In this document: positions 5,654 to 12,238 of the stretch, piece after piece
Position numbering within the stretch: the stretch's first letter is position 1
How the letters are laid out: each line of letters starts with the position of its first letter
Source: a virus
UHGV virus genome: UHGV-0258057
Strand: one strand, 5' to 3'
DNA: 14,263 nucleotides
Translations under genes and position numbers: made by a program
The notes under the pieces: generated by a model
The model's database searches: none
Told to the model about the DNA's origin: nothing
The model's input: only the letters and a program-made list of their open reading frames with translations

Positions 5654-6844
5654 TTAATTGCTGTTAACCGAGGTGACCAGATTTGCCAGATATTTATCGG
5701 TAATACGCTGGCGCAGGGTCAGGTTTTCAAGAGGAGGCACCGGGGTATAGTCGTAGTCGATATACAGTTTTCCGGCCTTAAGGGTTTCCGCATCGTTGGA
5801 TTCTTCGCTGAACCAGCAGGTCGCATCCACGATATAGCCGTTTGTTTTCAGCTCACGGAATTTGGCATTGATGCCGTCAACGATGTCGCGAATCAGCGTT
5901 GCGGTGATGGGCTTGTCCACCGCCCACATGTGCGCCTCAGCCATCGTGTCGGCCAGCACCTGCGCGGTGCGGGTGTAGTTTTCAAAGAGGAACAGCGGAT
6001 CATCAGAGCAGGTACGGTTACCCCAGAAGCGGAAACCGTCGCGGCGAATCAGCGTTGTGACGCCTGACTCGTTAAGCAGGTCAGCATCGGTGCCGGACTC
6101 CTGCAAATCCCAGAATACAGATGCGCTGATGCCGGTAACACCGTTCACCCCGACATTGGACAGCGTTTTATGCCAGCCCTGCTCTTGGTCGATTTTAGCG
6201 CGCAGACCCAGCGCACGGGCGGTGGCATACGCGGTGGCGGTGGTGCTGCTGACCGTATCCCATGCGAGGAAATCCGGCCAGATGACCATCAGCTCACGCT
6301 GGCTGAAATTCTGGCGGTAGGCTTTCACCTCGGAAATGGTTTTGCAGCCCCATGCGCTGATATACCCGAAAGCGCGCAGCTTCTGACAGACTGATGCCAG
6401 TGCAACAGCAACCTCTTTGGTGTCCAGTCCCGGCACGCCGAGAATACGCGGTTTAACACCGGTTACCGACTCCGCCGCCAGCAGGGCTTTCAGTCCGGTG
6501 TACTGACCGTTTTCGTCGGTGGTGCCGATGATATTGGAAACGGTCTGCGCGAGTTTCGTTTCCTCGTCTTCGCCGGTGCCGTCTTCCACACGCACGACAA
6601 CGGTGACCGGTTTTGACTGGTCGGCGATAGCCTGCAACGATGCCGCCAGCGTGCCTTTTTTACCGGCCTTTGCAATCGCGCTCTGCACATTGGTAATCAG
6701 CACCGGTTTATTGAGGGGGAAGATTTCCGCATCCGCATCGCTGGCCGTGCAGACCATGCCGACAATGGCCGTGGATACAGTGGAAATGACACGGGTGCCG
6801 TCGTTAATCTCCAGCACCTGCACGCCGTGATGATAGTCACTCAT
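5654..6844 (-). CDS. FI: Contractile tail sheath protein FI, 396 aa
   Basis: A 396-aa ORF, first gene of the FI-FII-E-T-U-D operon; size and position match P2 gpFI. Confidence 0.9.
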   Translation of the reverse strand: MSDYHHGVQVLEINDGTRVISTVSTAIVGMVCTASDADAEIFPLNKPVLITNVQSAIAKAGKKGTLAASLQAIADQSKPVTVVVRVEDGTGEDEETKLAQTVSNIIGTTDENGQYTGLKALLAAESVTGVKPRILGVPGLDTKEVAVALASVCQKLRAFGYISAWGCKTISEVKAYRQNFSQRELMVIWPDFLAWDTVSSTTATAYATARALGLRAKIDQEQGWHKTLSNVGVNGVTGISASVFWDLQESGTDADLLNESGVTTLIRRDGFRFWGNRTCSDDPLFLFENYTRTAQVLADTMAEAHMWAVDKPITATLIRDIVDGINAKFRELKTNGYIVDATCWFSEESNDAETLKAGKLYIDYDYTPVPPLENLTLRQRITDKYLANLVTSVNSN

Positions 6845-6938: not shown

Positions 6939-6971
6939 ATAAAGAAAAGGCGGGCAATCAGATTGCCTGCC
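6939..6971 (-). terminator. Rho-independent terminator closing the cargo operon upstream of the FI promoter
   Basis: A 10-bp stem ggcgggcaat/attgcctgcc (one G-U wobble) with a 3-nt loop at 6949-6971, followed on the minus strand by UUUUCUUUAUCU (plus 6939-6948). It lies about 150 nt downstream of the SIR2-like gene stop. Confidence 0.6.
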
Positions 6972-7123
6972 TTGATTTGTGCTCACTCATTTTCCGACTG
7001 ACAGTTTACATAGCCAAAACGCTATCAAATCTGACAGCCTGCTTTGAGCGAGGAACGGACTAAATGCTCATCTCAGCGGTCAAAGGATATTTTTCTTTGA
7101 CCGTTCTCTTTATAGAGAAAAGA

Positions 7124-8032
7124 TTATCTGTTAGTTTTATTCTGAATATCTTTGATTACATCGAGGTAATACTCTTTTTCCTTCCCTTTGAACACTAACC
7201 CGAAATTATGATTAATTATAACCCCAACACTTTTCAAAAGATCGATTTTTGGTTTGGAAGCAGCGTCATTATAATAATAACCAGGGATGTAATATGTCAC
7301 CTCATATTGCAAGCTTATTTTCTTTGCAATTCTAGTCCTTTCTCTAAATGTAAGTAACCACCAAAGATCAATTTCAACAAAATCCAAATTCAAGCCTAAG
7401 ATATATACATCCTTAGTAAAAAAATCATCGATCCAGCTATTACCAATATCATTTGCTTGCAACCGCTTTGTAAGCGGCTCGTTGAACGATTTATTGGAAT
7501 ACTGACTTCCGGTAGTTGTATACCCCCGCATGCTTTGCAAATAACCACTGTAATGCTCATAGCCAAGAATTATTGAGCTTGGGTTATTCACTGCTCCATG
7601 TATATGCCATATGTTTTTGTTTTTCACCTGATAATGCCTGAAAATATTGTATTTACTTTCTTTTATTACACCTTCATTTTTTAAATCATCAGGCTTGATG
7701 CTGTCGTCTAAACAATATTCAAAAGCTAAATCATAGTTTGTTGTTAAAATATTATTGCATTCTAATCCAATTATTCTTTGATGGATTTCATTTGGCTTTA
7801 TTGTGTTTATCTTTGATGCGATGGAATCTTTTATTTTATTTTCTGAAAATCCATTCGCTTGCTTATTTGAAATATTAAAATAAATCTCTTCATAGGCTAG
7901 TGGAAATGGTTTTTCATGCGTGTCAATTTTTATCCCATATGTTGCCCCTAGGTTATTTAAAACATCAAGCCAAGAATTTCCATTTGTAATATTATTTATG
8001 CCATTTCCAATAAGCAGTGAATAATCGCGCAT
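7124..8032 (-). CDS. Stand-alone SIR2-like (SIR2_2-type, predicted NAD+-hydrolase) protein, 302 aa; candidate defence effector
   Basis: Motifs in sirtuin-fold order: N-terminal glycine-rich LLIGNGINN, then ILTTNYDLAFE (TTNYD signature with the putative catalytic Asn), then WHIHGAVNNPSSIILGYEHY (HG motif with the following strand), then YILGLNLDFVEIDL. Strong RBS AGGGA 5 nt upstream; about 30% GC against about 55% in the flanking phage genes. Confidence 0.6.
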   Translation of the reverse strand: MRDYSLLIGNGINNITNGNSWLDVLNNLGATYGIKIDTHEKPFPLAYEEIYFNISNKQANGFSENKIKDSIASKINTIKPNEIHQRIIGLECNNILTTNYDLAFEYCLDDSIKPDDLKNEGVIKESKYNIFRHYQVKNKNIWHIHGAVNNPSSIILGYEHYSGYLQSMRGYTTTGSQYSNKSFNEPLTKRLQANDIGNSWIDDFFTKDVYILGLNLDFVEIDLWWLLTFRERTRIAKKISLQYEVTYYIPGYYYNDAASKPKIDLLKSVGVIINHNFGLVFKGKEKEYYLDVIKDIQNKTNR

Positions 8033-8262
8033 TTCTATCCCTTATGTTAGATACATTTTTTACACTATACTACTGATATTTATTCTAATACCAGTCATTG
8101 GCATGTTCGACACCGATAAGTTTGATCTTGCCTAGCAACTTATGTTTTCGAATATGCCCCCCCCATGAAAGTCTTAGACAACTATACCTATTAATATCCT
8201 ACAGAGTGCTCTTCGTAGTCAGAAAATGAGAACGAGATAACATCAGTTCATTGGTTTACTCC

Positions 8263-8499
8263 CTACGCAGTTTGTGAGTTAGCACCGTCCGCTTCTGGCA
8301 CGTAGGGGACCAACCAGCTGGTCCTCAGGTCCGATATGAGCGAGAAGCTAAAATTCGCAGTTGTTCCCAAAGTCGATGGAGGAATTTTTAACATTACAGT
8401 GTATTTATCAACGGGAAGCAGGTCACTCTCTATGGTTCTCGCATTATTTGTTAACAAAATAACATATTCTTTTGCTTCATCGATAGTATTGAATATCAT
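8263..8499 (-). CDS. Small hypothetical protein, 78 aa, middle gene of the cargo operon
   Basis: ORF with RBS GTGGGA 5 nt upstream of the ATG. The first ~58 codons are AT-rich like the neighbouring genes; the last ~20 codons read through a GC-rich hairpin element, so the true C-terminus is uncertain. Confidence 0.4.
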   Translation of the reverse strand: MIFNTIDEAKEYVILLTNNARTIESDLLPVDKYTVMLKIPPSTLGTTANFSFSLISDLRTSWLVPYVPEADGANSQTA

Positions 8500-8587
8500 A
8501 AGTTCCCACTTAACATCGATATCTGCGGTAACTGATTAACACAAAGAAATTCATCCAATAGCAGAGAATAACTTTGAGTTTTAGATT

Positions 8588-9430
8588 TTAAAAAACCTTC
8601 AGCCATAATGTTTCGAGCCTTGTGCCAATCACGCCTTTTCCAATGTTATCCAGCCCTCGAACCATTGCGTATAAGCCACCTAATATTTGAATCCCTTCCT
8701 TTACACCTAAAGACGAATAGTCAAAAGTTGGAAAGAGGACGTAATAAGACATAATTACCCCAATACAACACTCGAAAACTCCATAGGAAAGACGGAAATT
8801 TTCTCTGTACCAAAATAGTATGAGTCCTAAAACGGGTAAACCCATCATTGTCCCCCAAACTGTAATGGTAGATACCAGTACTTCCATATTGGAATAGACG
8901 ATGTTTGCGACTAGAGAAGCAAGCCCGCCGAGCACAAAACTGGCTTTTAGGTAACGCTTTTGAGATGAAACAGCTTTTTCTGCTTTCTCTTCTATTTCTT
9001 TATTTAGAAAATCGCCTTTGCTTTCATTTATAAACTCAATGCCAGTCATAGATGTAATATTCCGACTAGCAAGAAAATAAGACAAGGCACGATCATTGGT
9101 CACGACGCAAGGAACTTCTTCTCCTTGCCGTTCTGCGTAAGAAATAGCTATTCGAGCAATATCAAAGTCTGCCCCAGTCAAACGCTGAGCATTTCTATCG
9201 GATTGGAAGATGTCGTTTTTTATTTTTTCAGGCGCTTCAACTATGAGCACACCAGCGGGAATTGACGAGGCCACTAAATCAGTAATATCTGACCATTTGT
9301 TGCTTTTCCCTCTATATGAAAGCTCATGCATCACAGCTCTTGGGATAACTAGCTTCCGATTTCCAGCTCTAGACAATATCTCCGGATGCTGCAATAAAAC
9401 ATTAGTATCTATTATGTATCTACTTGGCAT
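8588..9430 (-). CDS. PIN-domain nuclease fused to a C-terminal ~3-TM membrane domain, 280 aa; candidate defence component
   Basis: The N-terminus YIIDTNVLL...KLVIPRAVMHELS...TNDRAL follows the PIN pattern (first-strand Asp, then Glu, then the C-terminal TND motif), resembling the YlaK/PhoH-like PIN. The C-terminal ~110 aa has three hydrophobic stretches (FVLGGLASLVANIVY..VLVSTITVWGTMMGLPVLGLILFWY; GVFECCIGVIMSYYVLFPTF; IQILGGLYAMVRGL). RBS AGGGA upstream. Confidence 0.55.
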   Translation of the reverse strand: MPSRYIIDTNVLLQHPEILSRAGNRKLVIPRAVMHELSYRGKSNKWSDITDLVASSIPAGVLIVEAPEKIKNDIFQSDRNAQRLTGADFDIARIAISYAERQGEEVPCVVTNDRALSYFLASRNITSMTGIEFINESKGDFLNKEIEEKAEKAVSSQKRYLKASFVLGGLASLVANIVYSNMEVLVSTITVWGTMMGLPVLGLILFWYRENFRLSYGVFECCIGVIMSYYVLFPTFDYSSLGVKEGIQILGGLYAMVRGLDNIGKGVIGTRLETLWLKVF

Positions 9431-9587
9431 AAGCTATCCCTGATACCTTAATTTATCAAATAAAACGGTATGTAAACATATAAAACATAACTTCACAACT
9501 CACTTATCACTGCAAGTTTCCCAACCAGGCAAGCCATGTGCTTAGATATCTGACCTAACGTTTCTAAATTGATGAATGTCCGCTATT

Positions 9588-9628
9588 GGCACAGAGCGGA
9601 CTGTCAGATTAGGCTTTACTCTGTGCCA
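9588..9628. repeat. 10-bp perfect inverted repeat with 21-nt loop, between the G stop and the cargo operon start
   Basis: tggcacagag (9588-9597) pairs with ctctgtgcca (9619-9628). There is no U-run on either side, so it is not a canonical intrinsic terminator; it may be a protein-binding site or the boundary of the cargo insertion. Confidence 0.4.
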
Positions 9629-9661
9629 TAGATATGTAAGCTCCCACCAGAGCTCATACAC

Positions 9662-10189
9662 TTATTGCGGCATTTCCGGCCATTCAGGATTTGCAGTATC
9701 CACACGACTGACAAGAACGCTGTAGCGTTCCCATGCCTCCAGTCGACTGCGCTCCTCATCTGTTGCCATATTCAGCCTGACAGCGCGCTCCAGCGGCAAA
9801 ATCACGGATTCGGCTTCGGAAAGCAAAGTTGCCTTTTGTGATTCTGCCAGTTGCTGCTGTTCGTCTGCCGTATAAATCCGCTTAATCACTGCACCATCCT
9901 TAAACATCCATTTACCTGAGTCATCAGCACGCCGGTTGGCAGTAATATCAGGAACCTCAACGACGCTAAAACCTTCAGGATTAAGCGTTGAAGCATCTCT
10001 GGTGATGGCGACAATAATATTATTTTCATCATAAACAATCTTTATTGTCTCTGGCTGAAAATTACTTACTTCCTCATACCAGTTTTTTCCGTCTTCGGAC
10101 CATAACCAGATAACATCAAAATTCTTTGTTAGCTGATATTGCTCTTTTGTTTTTGGATTACCTGACTTAATGTTCTTTAAATGCTGCAT
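9662..10189 (-). CDS. G: Tail fibre assembly protein G (Tfa chaperone), 175 aa
   Basis: A 175-aa ORF immediately downstream of tail fibre gene H; size and position match P2 gpG. Confidence 0.8.
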
Positions 10190-10192
10190 AAC

Positions 10193-12238
10193 TTATACCT
10201 GCGCAACGTTATACCATGTGCCATTGATGTATTTTTGTATTGGTCTGAATACTGCCGGATCATCGCCATCAACTTCACCGACAATACCAAGCCCCGTAAT
10301 TGCATGGCCTGATTTTTCATACATCACGCCTTTCTGCATGGTCTGCACAACACGTGTGCCAAGTCTGATATCTCTCACATAGCGGGAATCAAAGTTACCG
10401 TAATCCGAGGGATTAACACGCCCCGTAATATTTATGGTCTTATTACTTTGAATGCTTCCGGAGACAAAGCGCATAACATGGACGTTATTAGCATAAACAT
10501 CTAGATTACCATCGCCATTTTGTTTAAATCCGGTGTCGCTATCACCAAGAACAATAGAGTTCCCACCCAACGCGTTATTCGTGCCAAGTGCCAGCCCGCC
10601 ATCAATCCTGGCACCATTACCAACAGACACAACTCCTGTTCTTAAGTTGATACCGAATGGCCTTAATGGCCCGATATCCCCATTTTCACCCTCATTTTCT
10701 CGTGTAGGGATGATATACAGGTTTTCTTCAGAACGGCGAAAAATAGCACCAAAAGATGAATTAAATATCCTCAGTGCATTGACTGTAGATATTTTTACTT
10801 CACTGCTGAAAAGGGCTTTAACAAGAACATACAGAGCATCCCATTTAAGATGCATCAGGTCTTTTGTTGTGGTGCTCTGGCGACTTCTCCATTTGAAATA
10901 TTCATTGCCGTTGTCGCCTGTTTCAAACCACATATATGAATCAGTATCGCTGTCGGCATCATTTTTAAATCCAATCTTTGCCCAGTCAGTATTTCGAATC
11001 CAGGCAAGGATTGAGTCGTTTTCAAATGTAAGCCCACCGGACAAGGTATCGCCATTCTTTTGCACCGCGTTCCTGGCTCGGTTTTCCGTTTCCTGTAAAC
11101 CGAGATATTCGATAACGGCGGCAACGGTCGATTTCGCAAGAATATCTCGCCCGACTTTTGTCAGGATTGCCAGGCTGGCAACATCATTCCCCGTAAAATA
11201 CGGAAACCTGTCTGCCGCAGTAACAAGCCCCGCCAGCGCCGTCAAAGTGGCATCTTTCGGTTGCTTACCCGCAAGCGCATTAGTCATGGTGATAGCAAAA
11301 TTCGGGTCATTGCCCAGCGCCGCTGCCAGCTCGTTCAGCGTATTCAGTGCGTCAGGCGACGAGTCTACAAGGGCGGCAATCGCGGCCATAACGAAAGCCG
11401 TGTTTGCGATCTGAGTATTATTCGTTCCCTGTCGCGCAGTTGGCGTCGTTGGCGTTCCGGTCAGTGCAGGGCTGTTTAATGGCGCTTTTTGGTTCGTTTC
11501 ATCCATTACCGTCTTAACAGCTTTTGGTGTTGCGGCGAGCGTTTCAGACATGCTGTTGGTCGCACTACTTAGCTGGACAAGACCTTTTCGCGCTGTGGTA
11601 GCGTCCTGTGCGGTATATTTCCCGTTAGCAAGGTCATATGCGGCCTTAACCGCTTTCGGCGTTGCGGCCAGTGTTTCAGATATGCTGTTGGTCGCACTGC
11701 TTAACTGAGTAAAACCTTTTGCGGTCAGCGAGGCGTCAGGGTGACGTCGTGACTGTTCATGTTCTGCAATTTTGTCATCAACGTAATCCTGCGTTGCCAT
11801 CACCGTTGTGGTGTCAATGGTCAGCGCCACTGAGGCCACACTGCTGACGATGATGACCATGCGGCAGGTCTGCGAACGCCCTGAGCCTTCGGCAAGGGCA
11901 GGCTTATAACTTTCGGCCATGTTCGCCACGGCAATTAACGTTCCCGCATCATCGTACAGGCCAAGCTCACGCATCCAGAAACCGCCCACCTCCGGCGGAA
12001 TAACCAGCTCTGCGATAATATAATTACTGTTTCGTTTGTCCTGGCTGATTTTGTTCAGCGCATGTCGCCAGACTTCGTGGATAAGCCCGGTCTGTCCGGC
12101 ATCCGGGACAGGCAATTTACCACCGCCATCCCCGACGGCCATCGTGGTAATGTTGACCTTCCGCCCTCCCGGCGCGGTTGCCGCTGCCAGCTTTGCTGCA
12201 CCGGCAGTGGTGATAACGGTTCTGAATTTTGTGCTCAT
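10193..12238 (-). CDS. H: Tail fibre protein H, 681 aa
   Basis: Large ORF between I and G; contains a duplicated QLSSATNS(I/M)SETLAATPKAVK motif characteristic of P2 H/Stf-type fibres and a compositionally distinct C-terminal domain. Confidence 0.85.
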   Translation of the reverse strand: MSTKFRTVITTAGAAKLAAATAPGGRKVNITTMAVGDGGGKLPVPDAGQTGLIHEVWRHALNKISQDKRNSNYIIAELVIPPEVGGFWMRELGLYDDAGTLIAVANMAESYKPALAEGSGRSQTCRMVIIVSSVASVALTIDTTTVMATQDYVDDKIAEHEQSRRHPDASLTAKGFTQLSSATNSISETLAATPKAVKAAYDLANGKYTAQDATTARKGLVQLSSATNSMSETLAATPKAVKTVMDETNQKAPLNSPALTGTPTTPTARQGTNNTQIANTAFVMAAIAALVDSSPDALNTLNELAAALGNDPNFAITMTNALAGKQPKDATLTALAGLVTAADRFPYFTGNDVASLAILTKVGRDILAKSTVAAVIEYLGLQETENRARNAVQKNGDTLSGGLTFENDSILAWIRNTDWAKIGFKNDADSDTDSYMWFETGDNGNEYFKWRSRQSTTTKDLMHLKWDALYVLVKALFSSEVKISTVNALRIFNSSFGAIFRRSEENLYIIPTRENEGENGDIGPLRPFGINLRTGVVSVGNGARIDGGLALGTNNALGGNSIVLGDSDTGFKQNGDGNLDVYANNVHVMRFVSGSIQSNKTINITGRVNPSDYGNFDSRYVRDIRLGTRVVQTMQKGVMYEKSGHAITGLGIVGEVDGDDPAVFRPIQKYINGTWYNVAQV

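Follow-up and report, generated by a model that had tools for sequence, protein, structure and literature searches.

Does the AT-rich DNA lodged between the tail genes G and FI of a P2-like prophage encode one composite anti-phage system, or a stack of unrelated ones? The DNA analysed here, 14,263 nucleotides of the virus genome UHGV-0258057 (14.3 kb; 'the window' throughout), is the late-gene region of such a prophage, and every gene in it lies on the minus strand. Its insert of ~2.5–2.7 kb between G and FI holds three open reading frames (ORFs): one for a PIN-domain protein with membrane helices (PIN-TM), a middle ORF of 78 codons (ORF78) and one for a short, stand-alone SIR2 protein. The initial annotation read these as an insulated three-gene operon forming a new abortive-infection system, and named two stacked single-gene systems as a fallback. 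Our analysis favours the fallback. We consider it probable that the insert consists of two unrelated, independently acquired single-gene cassettes, stacked head-to-tail and exchanged at palindromic sites, whose products would act as separate abortive-infection or exclusion effectors. One exotic three-gene system thereby becomes two testable single-gene candidates.

Occurrence of the two halves apart

Each half of the insert occurs without the other. One IMG/VR phage contig (L015) matches window positions 9597–8287 at 97.6% nucleotide identity and has no SIR2 gene, and a second (L017) matches positions 8312–7040 at 92.1% and has no PIN gene. These PIN-only and SIR2-only homologies overlap at 8287–8312, on a palindrome internal to the insert. 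Within the window, 555 bp separate the stop codon of PIN-TM from the start codon of SIR2, and the two halves have GC contents of 34.5% and 39.1%.

Beyond these contigs, the two genes do not keep company. A PIN-TM relative is found in none of 80 species-level SIR2 loci (±6 kb), and a short SIR2 gene in none of 38 metagenome loci carrying PIN-TM; inspection of about a dozen distinct genomic contexts gave the same picture. Nor does SIR2 have a recurrent partner gene of any kind in the 80 loci beyond what genus-level synteny explains, the largest neighbour cluster comprising 10 loci, all of them from Chitinophaga. The lack of co-occurrence, which the initial annotation had itself named as a refuting result, counts together with the existence of the separate halves against the three-gene reading that had been proposed and supports stacked single-gene units.

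Solitary copies of PIN-TM are spread over very different replicons. The gene adjoins OLD-TOPRIM and UvrD genes in an integrative and conjugative element (ICE) of Chlorobaculum, lies between trpA and ydjM in Aeromonas, stands beside a retron reverse transcriptase gene in Pseudomonas and beside PIN-TPR-GreABC genes in Cellvibrio, and is carried by an integrative element in Pectobacterium. A further copy, of 74% identity, is carried by an IncFII plasmid from an Erwiniaceae bacterium (L023, 5001–10161) and is convergent with a full-length Dsr1 (PADLOC E = 0), an adjacency that probably arose through defence-island clustering. Short SIR2 genes stand alone in Aeromonas and in an ICE of Salmonella. 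In Proteus mirabilis (L007, 6954–8078), where a lambda-like tail module ends, a short SIR2 gene of 71% identity lies 38 bp ahead of a homologue of PD-T7-5 (PADLOC 1.7e-131), with no PIN-TM; here too, single-gene defence cassettes are stacked.

The SIR2-only contig also carries, convergent to the cassette (L017, 7109–8071), an ORF of 320 amino acids with no Pfam or PADLOC match, which may be a further uncharacterised moron at the prophage end.

Palindromic sites at the cassette boundaries

The ends of the two homologies coincide with short palindromic sites of two types (Table 1). The initial annotation had placed an inverted repeat on the G side of the insert and an intrinsic terminator on the FI side. 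Both features are present, but what brackets the insert is a pair of 33-nt repeats, inverted relative to each other and 76% complementary, with a third copy inside at 8287–8310; the terminator-like hairpin with T-run near FI (6967–6953) is phage backbone and not cargo. A-type sites have the sequence GTCCGCTnT-GTGCCAA-nAGCGGAC (~24 nt), with palindromic arms around a core of 6–7 nt, and C-type sites have the core TTCGCTC (GAGCGAA on the other strand). The A-type cores lie at 9586–9592 and 8295–8301 of the window.

On the G side, the match to the core pattern is exact at 9578–9592, the L015 homology begins at 9597, and the flank common to other P2-like prophages ends at ~9575; a second hairpin (GGCACAGAG at 9627–9619 with CTCTGTGCC at 9596–9588) overlaps the site. 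The internal palindrome, 24 nt of the form GTCCsCT..GTGCCA..AGCGGAC, marks the point where the L015 homology ends (8287) and the L017 homology starts (8312), and both contigs carry an A-type site at that end. At the far side, the L017 homology stops at 7040, within the FI-side site. A degenerate C-type copy lies inside ORF78 at 8329–8352, and at that place the Pectobacterium element ends in an intact C-type site. From these positions we derive a sense-strand layout of [A – PIN – C'] [A' – SIR2 – C], that is, two complete units in tandem.

The same arrangement recurs in other Z-region inserts. In the GenBank entries AJ512680 and AJ512683 (Nilsson et al.) the outer repeats are annotated as 'left inverted repeat' and 'right inverted repeat', so that the window shares with these P2 Z/fun loci both the slot between G and FI and the flanking repeats; in AJ512680 (L019), which has two ORFs, an internal A-type site lies between them. 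Single-cassette P2-like contigs have the order A...C, a 3.5-kb insert has an internal C-type site, and in L132 an internal site separates the cassettes. C-type sites end the Z-region inserts of L030, L093, L099, L117 and L132, and sites of these types were also noted in L015, L017, L019, L020, L021 and L132. In the Cellvibrio chromosome an A-type site precedes PIN-TM.

An exact-pattern scan of IMG/VR for the A-type core returned at least 120 matches, and the figures given here hold among the matches listed. A palindromic left arm is present in 61 of the 120, against ~1.3% expected by chance. At least 32 classes of left flank and at least 39 of right flank are joined combinatorially; the right flank ATTATAGATGGT, for instance, follows four different left flanks. 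The left flanks include the end of G, an orf91-like gene (the old/tin hotspot), gpD, an FII-like tube gene and a Gin/Cin-type invertase. Cassettes thus appear to move, by exchange at the palindromic sites, among phages (P2-like and others), plasmids and integrative elements.

The commonest cassette behind an A-type site in this set starts with ATTATAGATGGT (10 of the 61 palindromic matches). In L015, which has this right flank, positions 7200–8009 encode on the opposite strand a Cys-rich protein of 269 amino acids without a Pfam or PADLOC match.

How the exchange takes place may be explained equally well by a dedicated recombinase or by short-homology recombination between conserved hairpins. 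Unlike ordinary terminators, the site hairpins have no U-run, and a regulatory or terminator role is still possible. Judging by the consensus sequences, the sites are probably distinct from dif, hix and gix. The core of the A-type site is the same, at 7 of 7 positions, as that of the sfx sites of the R64 shufflon (GTGCCAA), at which the tyrosine recombinase Rci cuts (PMC4176322, PMC11852207), whereas the sfx right arm TCCGGTnnnTGG is matched at just 5 of 12 positions. With shufflon sfx sites, heterospecific lox-type exchange and integron attC sites, the sites described here share a short element at each cassette boundary, arms around a spacer of 6–7 nt and two core types flanking the slot. No rci-like or integron integrase gene is found in the 14-kb window.

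A more far-reaching reading, which we put forward tentatively and regard as a lesser possibility, is that the P2-like hotspots (Z/fun and the slots after orf91, D, FII and a Gin-type invertase), together with slots in unrelated phages, integrative elements and chromosomes, are cassette-exchange platforms on which a putative Rci-like tyrosine recombinase, encoded by the host or a plasmid, would act at two heterospecific sites, with PIN-TM and the bare SIR2 protein being two new single-gene abortive-infection systems. If this is true, whole defence cassettes would swap while the phage backbone stays undisturbed, and a recombinase acting on the sites would provide both a mechanistic basis for hotspot diversity and a rule for delimiting cassettes and system membership in thousands of prophages. 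The sites in any case offer a sequence handle on the shuffling of defence cargo among P2 hotspots and other mobile elements. Of the results presented here, the arrangement of cassettes and sites has the greater originality, although Nilsson et al. 2004 may have anticipated part of it.

The encoded proteins and the readings they allow

The proteins of the insert were searched against Pfam, PADLOC 2.0, NCBIfam and PHROGs. NCBIfam gave no match for any of them, and the PHROG matches were weak and at domain level alone. For the two larger proteins the domain assignments made initially from sequence, a PIN domain with membrane helices and a short SIR2 standing alone and bearing the motifs TTNYD and HG, hold up against Pfam, the alignments and, for the SIR2 protein, an AlphaFold2 (AF2) model.

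The SIR2 protein matches Pfam SIR2_2 (2.8e-10), as do all 30 family sequences searched. In an alignment of 30 sequences the motifs GNGINN, KPFPLAYEE, TTNYD (N99, D101) and WHIHG (H145) are invariant, and the Asn of TTNYD and the His of HG coincide with the catalytic Asn/His pair of ThsA. The AF2 model (pLDDT 87) consists of one SIR2 domain, and its top Foldseek matches over the full length are DSR2, ThsA and KomC (E from 5e-8 to 1e-6, TM ~0.55); a profile search of PDB sequences finds ThsA, KomC and human FAM118B. Sequence and model thus both place the protein in the defence-type SIR2 (SIRim) NADase fold, which is a Rossmann fold of SIR2_2 type that carries the catalytic Asn and His. The full-length match to this fold, with neither a SLOG domain, a HEAT-like sensor nor a partner, leads us to describe the protein as a defence-type SIR2 domain and nothing else.

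PIN-TM matches Pfam PIN_4 (3.3e-11), and the VapC-type family PF01850 at just 13.3 bits against a cut-off of 23.6. The catalytic Asp residues D8, D88 and D113 are kept in 29–30 of 32 relatives. The membrane module, with the motifs GGLYxMVRGLDNIGKG and RLSYGxFE, is better conserved than the PIN domain (mean column identity 0.67 versus 0.54), and more markedly so in distant members (51% versus 21%); the faster evolution of the PIN domain fits an arms race or a sensing role. Searched alone, the module is found in at least 442 representative clusters (50% identity), nearly all of ~280 amino acids with the module C-terminal at ~150–280, and a PIN_4 or NYN N-terminus is present in 7 of 10 distant members. 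No fusion of the module to another domain type was seen among the clusters or the distant members, and no structural match to the module was found. PIN-TM is therefore a coherent, widespread and unnamed family of fixed architecture, with an N-terminal PIN_4 or NYN domain and a C-terminal membrane module, and the window protein has this architecture. That so widespread a fusion is absent from PADLOC 2.0, which returned nothing for PIN-TM, gives the family an interest of its own.

As first proposed, no named system in PADLOC 2.0 accounts for the insert, and the closest candidates can be set aside individually. ThsA of Thoeris has SLOG beside its SIR2 domain (or else TM plus Macro) and needs a TIR partner, ThsB; the window has no TIR ORF, and the one-domain SIR2 protein matches only the SIR2 part of ThsA (1e-10; profile positions 26–178 of 242 and 23–178 of 478), with further partial SIR2-domain matches to LmuA and PDC-S25. 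DSR1 and DSR2 are excluded by the length of the protein (302 amino acids, where these systems have ~1000 or more) and by the lack of any PADLOC Dsr match at E ≤ 1, when a true Dsr1 gives E = 0 in the same library; DSR2 has a C-terminal sensor of ~700 amino acids that the SIR2 protein does not. For SIR2-HerA (Nezha) and PD-T7-2, the PADLOC SIR2 match is 0.0054 with no HerA or PD-T7-2 match, the insert has no ATPase ORF, and the 80 loci show no conserved partner; a paper on Streptococcus thermophilus deals with SIR2-HerA alone. KomC of Kongming (KomABC) is likewise short (264 amino acids) and is both a structural and a profile neighbour, but it needs KomA and KomB, and no KomA deaminase or KomB HAM1-like partner is present in the window or recurs beside homologues.

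AbiH (PF14253) is closer. The match (5.4e-6, 27.1 bits) falls under the gathering threshold of 30.9 and covers profile positions 114–244 of 260, and 6 of the 30 SIR2 family members match AbiH at E < 1e-3, so that the window protein is a borderline relative and not a member. AbiH, a single-gene abortive-infection protein of Lactococcus lactis, is treated as a SIRim-only antiphage protein (bioRxiv 10.1101/2024.09.18.613514). The two are alike in being solitary proteins of ~300–350 amino acids with a defence-type SIR2 fold, no fused sensor and a location on mobile DNA; they differ in that SIR2_2 is the better match for the window protein, which has no PADLOC AbiH match and comes from another phylum and host. 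By analogy, AbiH is the closest single-gene precedent for the SIR2 protein.

For PIN-TM, VapBC is not a suitable assignment: besides the low PF01850 score, no small ORF lies between the G-side A-type site and the PIN-TM ATG, and the fused membrane domain is atypical. Among PIN-domain RNases, VapC toxins and the SMG6/Nob1/Dis3 PIN_4 group come closest, but PIN-TM has no VapB-type antitoxin. Two PIN proteins are described by DefensePredictor, DS-3 as a split PIN and DS-5 with a DUF5830/AcrIF4-like partner (PMC13092281), and these descriptions set PIN-TM apart from both; neither WP_097498779, WP_088545455 nor PIN_4 appears in the DefensePredictor supplements, and we found no literature linking PIN-TM with anti-phage activity. 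PIN-TM and the SIR2 protein are accordingly candidate single-gene effectors from known domains in a known hotspot, not a categorically new multi-gene system.

The evidence leans, on sequence, towards an anti-phage role for both proteins. Relatives elsewhere have PD-T7-5, Dsr1, a retron reverse transcriptase and the Gabija-like OLD-TOPRIM and UvrD pair as neighbours. The hotspot position, the resemblance of the SIR2 protein to defence NADases in fold and catalytic residues, the conserved PIN Asp residues and the uniform PIN-TM architecture also speak for such a role. We envisage that each cassette is expressed from the prophage off its own upstream region (147 bp for PIN-TM, 254 bp for SIR2), and that each gene would by itself protect the lysogen against superinfecting phages. 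The SIR2 protein would be kept inactive until a phage cue induces its oligomerisation and thereby NAD+ hydrolysis, as for ThsA, DSR2 and KomC. Its nearest structural relatives, ThsA, KomC and FAM118B, become active by forming filaments, and the cue that lifts auto-inhibition may accordingly be either a small molecule or a protein of the phage; the bare domain makes it of general interest how a sensor-less NADase stays off and then becomes triggered. PIN-TM would be a membrane-tethered endoribonuclease in which the membrane module is coupled to RNA cleavage, and this module might sense envelope perturbation or itself be the lethal effector.

Several points weigh against two independent defence cassettes. 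Neither protein matches a specific defence model of its own in PADLOC 2.0. A bare SIR2 without a sensor leaves the trigger without explanation, and many of its Bacteroidota homologues, including those of Sphingobacterium and Chitinophaga, sit in genus-conserved chromosomal synteny and not in obvious islands, so not all family members need be defensive. In two of its contexts, the window and the IncFII plasmid, PIN-TM lies next to a SIR2-domain protein, possibly a sign that the two are functionally linked. A sense-strand scan found no consensus sigma-70 promoter upstream of either gene, which leaves both promoters presumed, and with no clear terminator between PIN-TM and SIR2, read-through co-transcription is possible.

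The alternative that survives best is that one or both genes serve lysogenic conversion or addiction, the membrane RNase being a stabilising toxin and the SIR2 protein a deacylase or regulator of benefit to the host. It would accord with the chromosomal synteny just described and with the GenBank records AJ512680 and AJ512683, which name Z-region ORFs 'lysogenic conversion proteins'. We nevertheless judge it unlikely: the structural neighbours of the SIR2 protein are defence NADases and not deacetylating sirtuins, and on mobile elements both genes recur next to validated defence systems, here within a defence hotspot.

The status of ORF78 bears on the next alternative, in which PIN-TM and ORF78 form a two-gene module, a toxin with a small antitoxin or regulator, beside a solitary SIR2. 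PIN toxins usually come with antitoxins, and the ORF78 region does travel with PIN-TM, in L015 and, for residues 1–59, in the Pectobacterium element (L020). Furthermore, 4 of the 5 substitutions relative to L015 fall at third codon positions (p ~0.045), a hint of coding. Relative to L020, however, there are 11 non-synonymous and 2 synonymous codon changes, spread across all codon positions, and the start codon ATG is replaced by ATA. ORF78 is missing beside all PIN-TM homologues of ≤79% identity, has no family in the four libraries and no PGAP annotation in Escherichia coli strain ZH177, and appears as one cluster of 4 sequences in a database of 5.8 billion protein clusters. Its last residues are encoded by the boundary sites and differ in each context, and it follows the toxin gene, whereas in VapBC the antitoxin gene comes first. 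The module therefore seems decidedly unlikely, and ORF78 is most likely a non-coding 3' part of the PIN cassette; the three co-oriented ORFs of the initial annotation are all there on the minus strand, with the middle one probably not a gene.

That PIN-TM, the 78-amino-acid protein and SIR2 constitute one three-component abortive-infection operon is highly improbable, for although the ORFs are co-oriented, lack a strong terminator between them, have been conserved together over the whole 2.7 kb in ZH177 and an IMG/VR contig, and have the ribosome-binding site (RBS) context in common that was noted initially (AGGGATAG-N2-3-ATG for the first and last genes), and although PIN-TM adjoins the SIR2-domain Dsr1 on the IncFII plasmid, the genes do not co-occur, the halves occur alone, a boundary site and a long gap part them, ORF78 has neither a family nor a stable start codon, and the plasmid neighbour belongs to a different SIR2 family on the opposite strand.

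Slot, composition and neighbouring features

The insert occupies the Z/fun slot, as first proposed: both flanking genes have PHROG matches (Table 1), the flanks are common to P2, Wphi and L-413C, and variable DNA between G and FI of a P2-like phage is what defines P2 Z/fun cargo. Among 5,426 complete E. coli genomes, the cargo is present in strain ZH177 alone, and just the flanks, around variable cargo, are common to 772, which is the signature of a hotspot. Rousset 2022 studied the A–Q hotspot and not Z/fun. The present cargo is not among the PD systems in PADLOC 2.0. Z/fun corresponds to defence hotspot 2 of Vassallo et al. 2022, which contains three validated PD systems and fun, and no system matching the insert is named there for this second P2 hotspot (PMC9519451).

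The whole 2.7-kb cargo is 100% identical in ZH177 and in one IMG/VR contig. The PGAP annotation of ZH177 gives it solely as a 'PIN domain-containing protein' and a 'SIR2 family protein'. The ZH177 prophage itself (L001, NZ_CM125652.1 1836284–1844973) is degraded, with FI truncated and joined to a remnant of D and with the genes from FII to U gone; given its identical cargo, the defence cargo has outlived the phage.

Table 1. Positions of the insert, its boundary sites and its flanking genes in the window (sequences on the sense strand)
Feature	Position	Strand	Description
Gene order	whole window	minus	ogr, D, U, T, E, FII, FI / insert / G, H, I, J, W
G	9662–10189	minus	PHROG tail fibre assembly, 1e-80
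G-side A-type site	9578–9610 (33 nt; 24-nt element 9578–9601)	minus	AATCTGACA-GTCCGCTCT-GTGCCAA-TAGCGGAC
PIN-TM cassette 5' region	9431–9577 (147 bp)	minus	travels with gene: 97.6% identical in L015, kept in L020; promoter presumed; RBS AGGGATAG
PIN-TM gene (280 amino acids)	8588–9430	minus	PIN_4-type domain ~1–136, long linker helix 144–180, C-terminal bundle of 3–4 membrane helices
ORF78 (78 codons)	8263–8499	minus	spans degenerate C-type site 8329–8352 and internal A-type site
Internal A-type site	8287–8310	minus	joint of the two cassettes; GTCCCCTAC-GTGCCAG-AAGCGGAC; 1 mismatch
SIR2 cassette 5' region	8033–8286 (254 bp)	minus	92% identical in L017, where no PIN gene lies upstream; promoter presumed; RBS AGGGATAG
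Short SIR2 gene (302 amino acids)	7124–8032	minus	single defence-type SIR2 (SIRim) domain, no sensor domain
Hairpin directly 3' of SIR2 stop	7075–7105	minus	13-pair stem; kept in L017; part of SIR2 cassette
FI-side C-type site	7028–7060 (33 nt; 24-nt element 7037–7060)	minus	GTCCGTTCCTCGCTCAAAGCAGGC-TGTCAGATT; inverted partner of G-side site, different core
Hairpin and T-run, terminator-like, upstream of FI	6944–6973	minus	inside flank common to 772 E. coli genomes
FI	5654–6844	minus	PHROG tail sheath, 5e-159

The insert is AT-rich, as had been noted, but less so than the ~30% GC in a ~55% backbone first given: its GC content is 36–37% overall, with 32% for the SIR2 gene and 40% for the PIN gene, in a backbone of 56%. 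The 5' region of SIR2 holds TATAGT, a −10-like hexamer. The hairpin directly 3' of the SIR2 stop is uncertain as a terminator, since no U-run follows it on the sense strand.

Two minor observations concern the surroundings of the genes. A run of eight G at 8153–8160, upstream of SIR2, reads as five G and then T in L017; the tract could be slippage-prone and affect expression. Low GC (37–45%) is also seen at 9900–11000, in G and the 3' half of the tail fibre gene H, against 55–60% in the rest of the late region, which suggests a separately acquired host-range module adjoining the hotspot.

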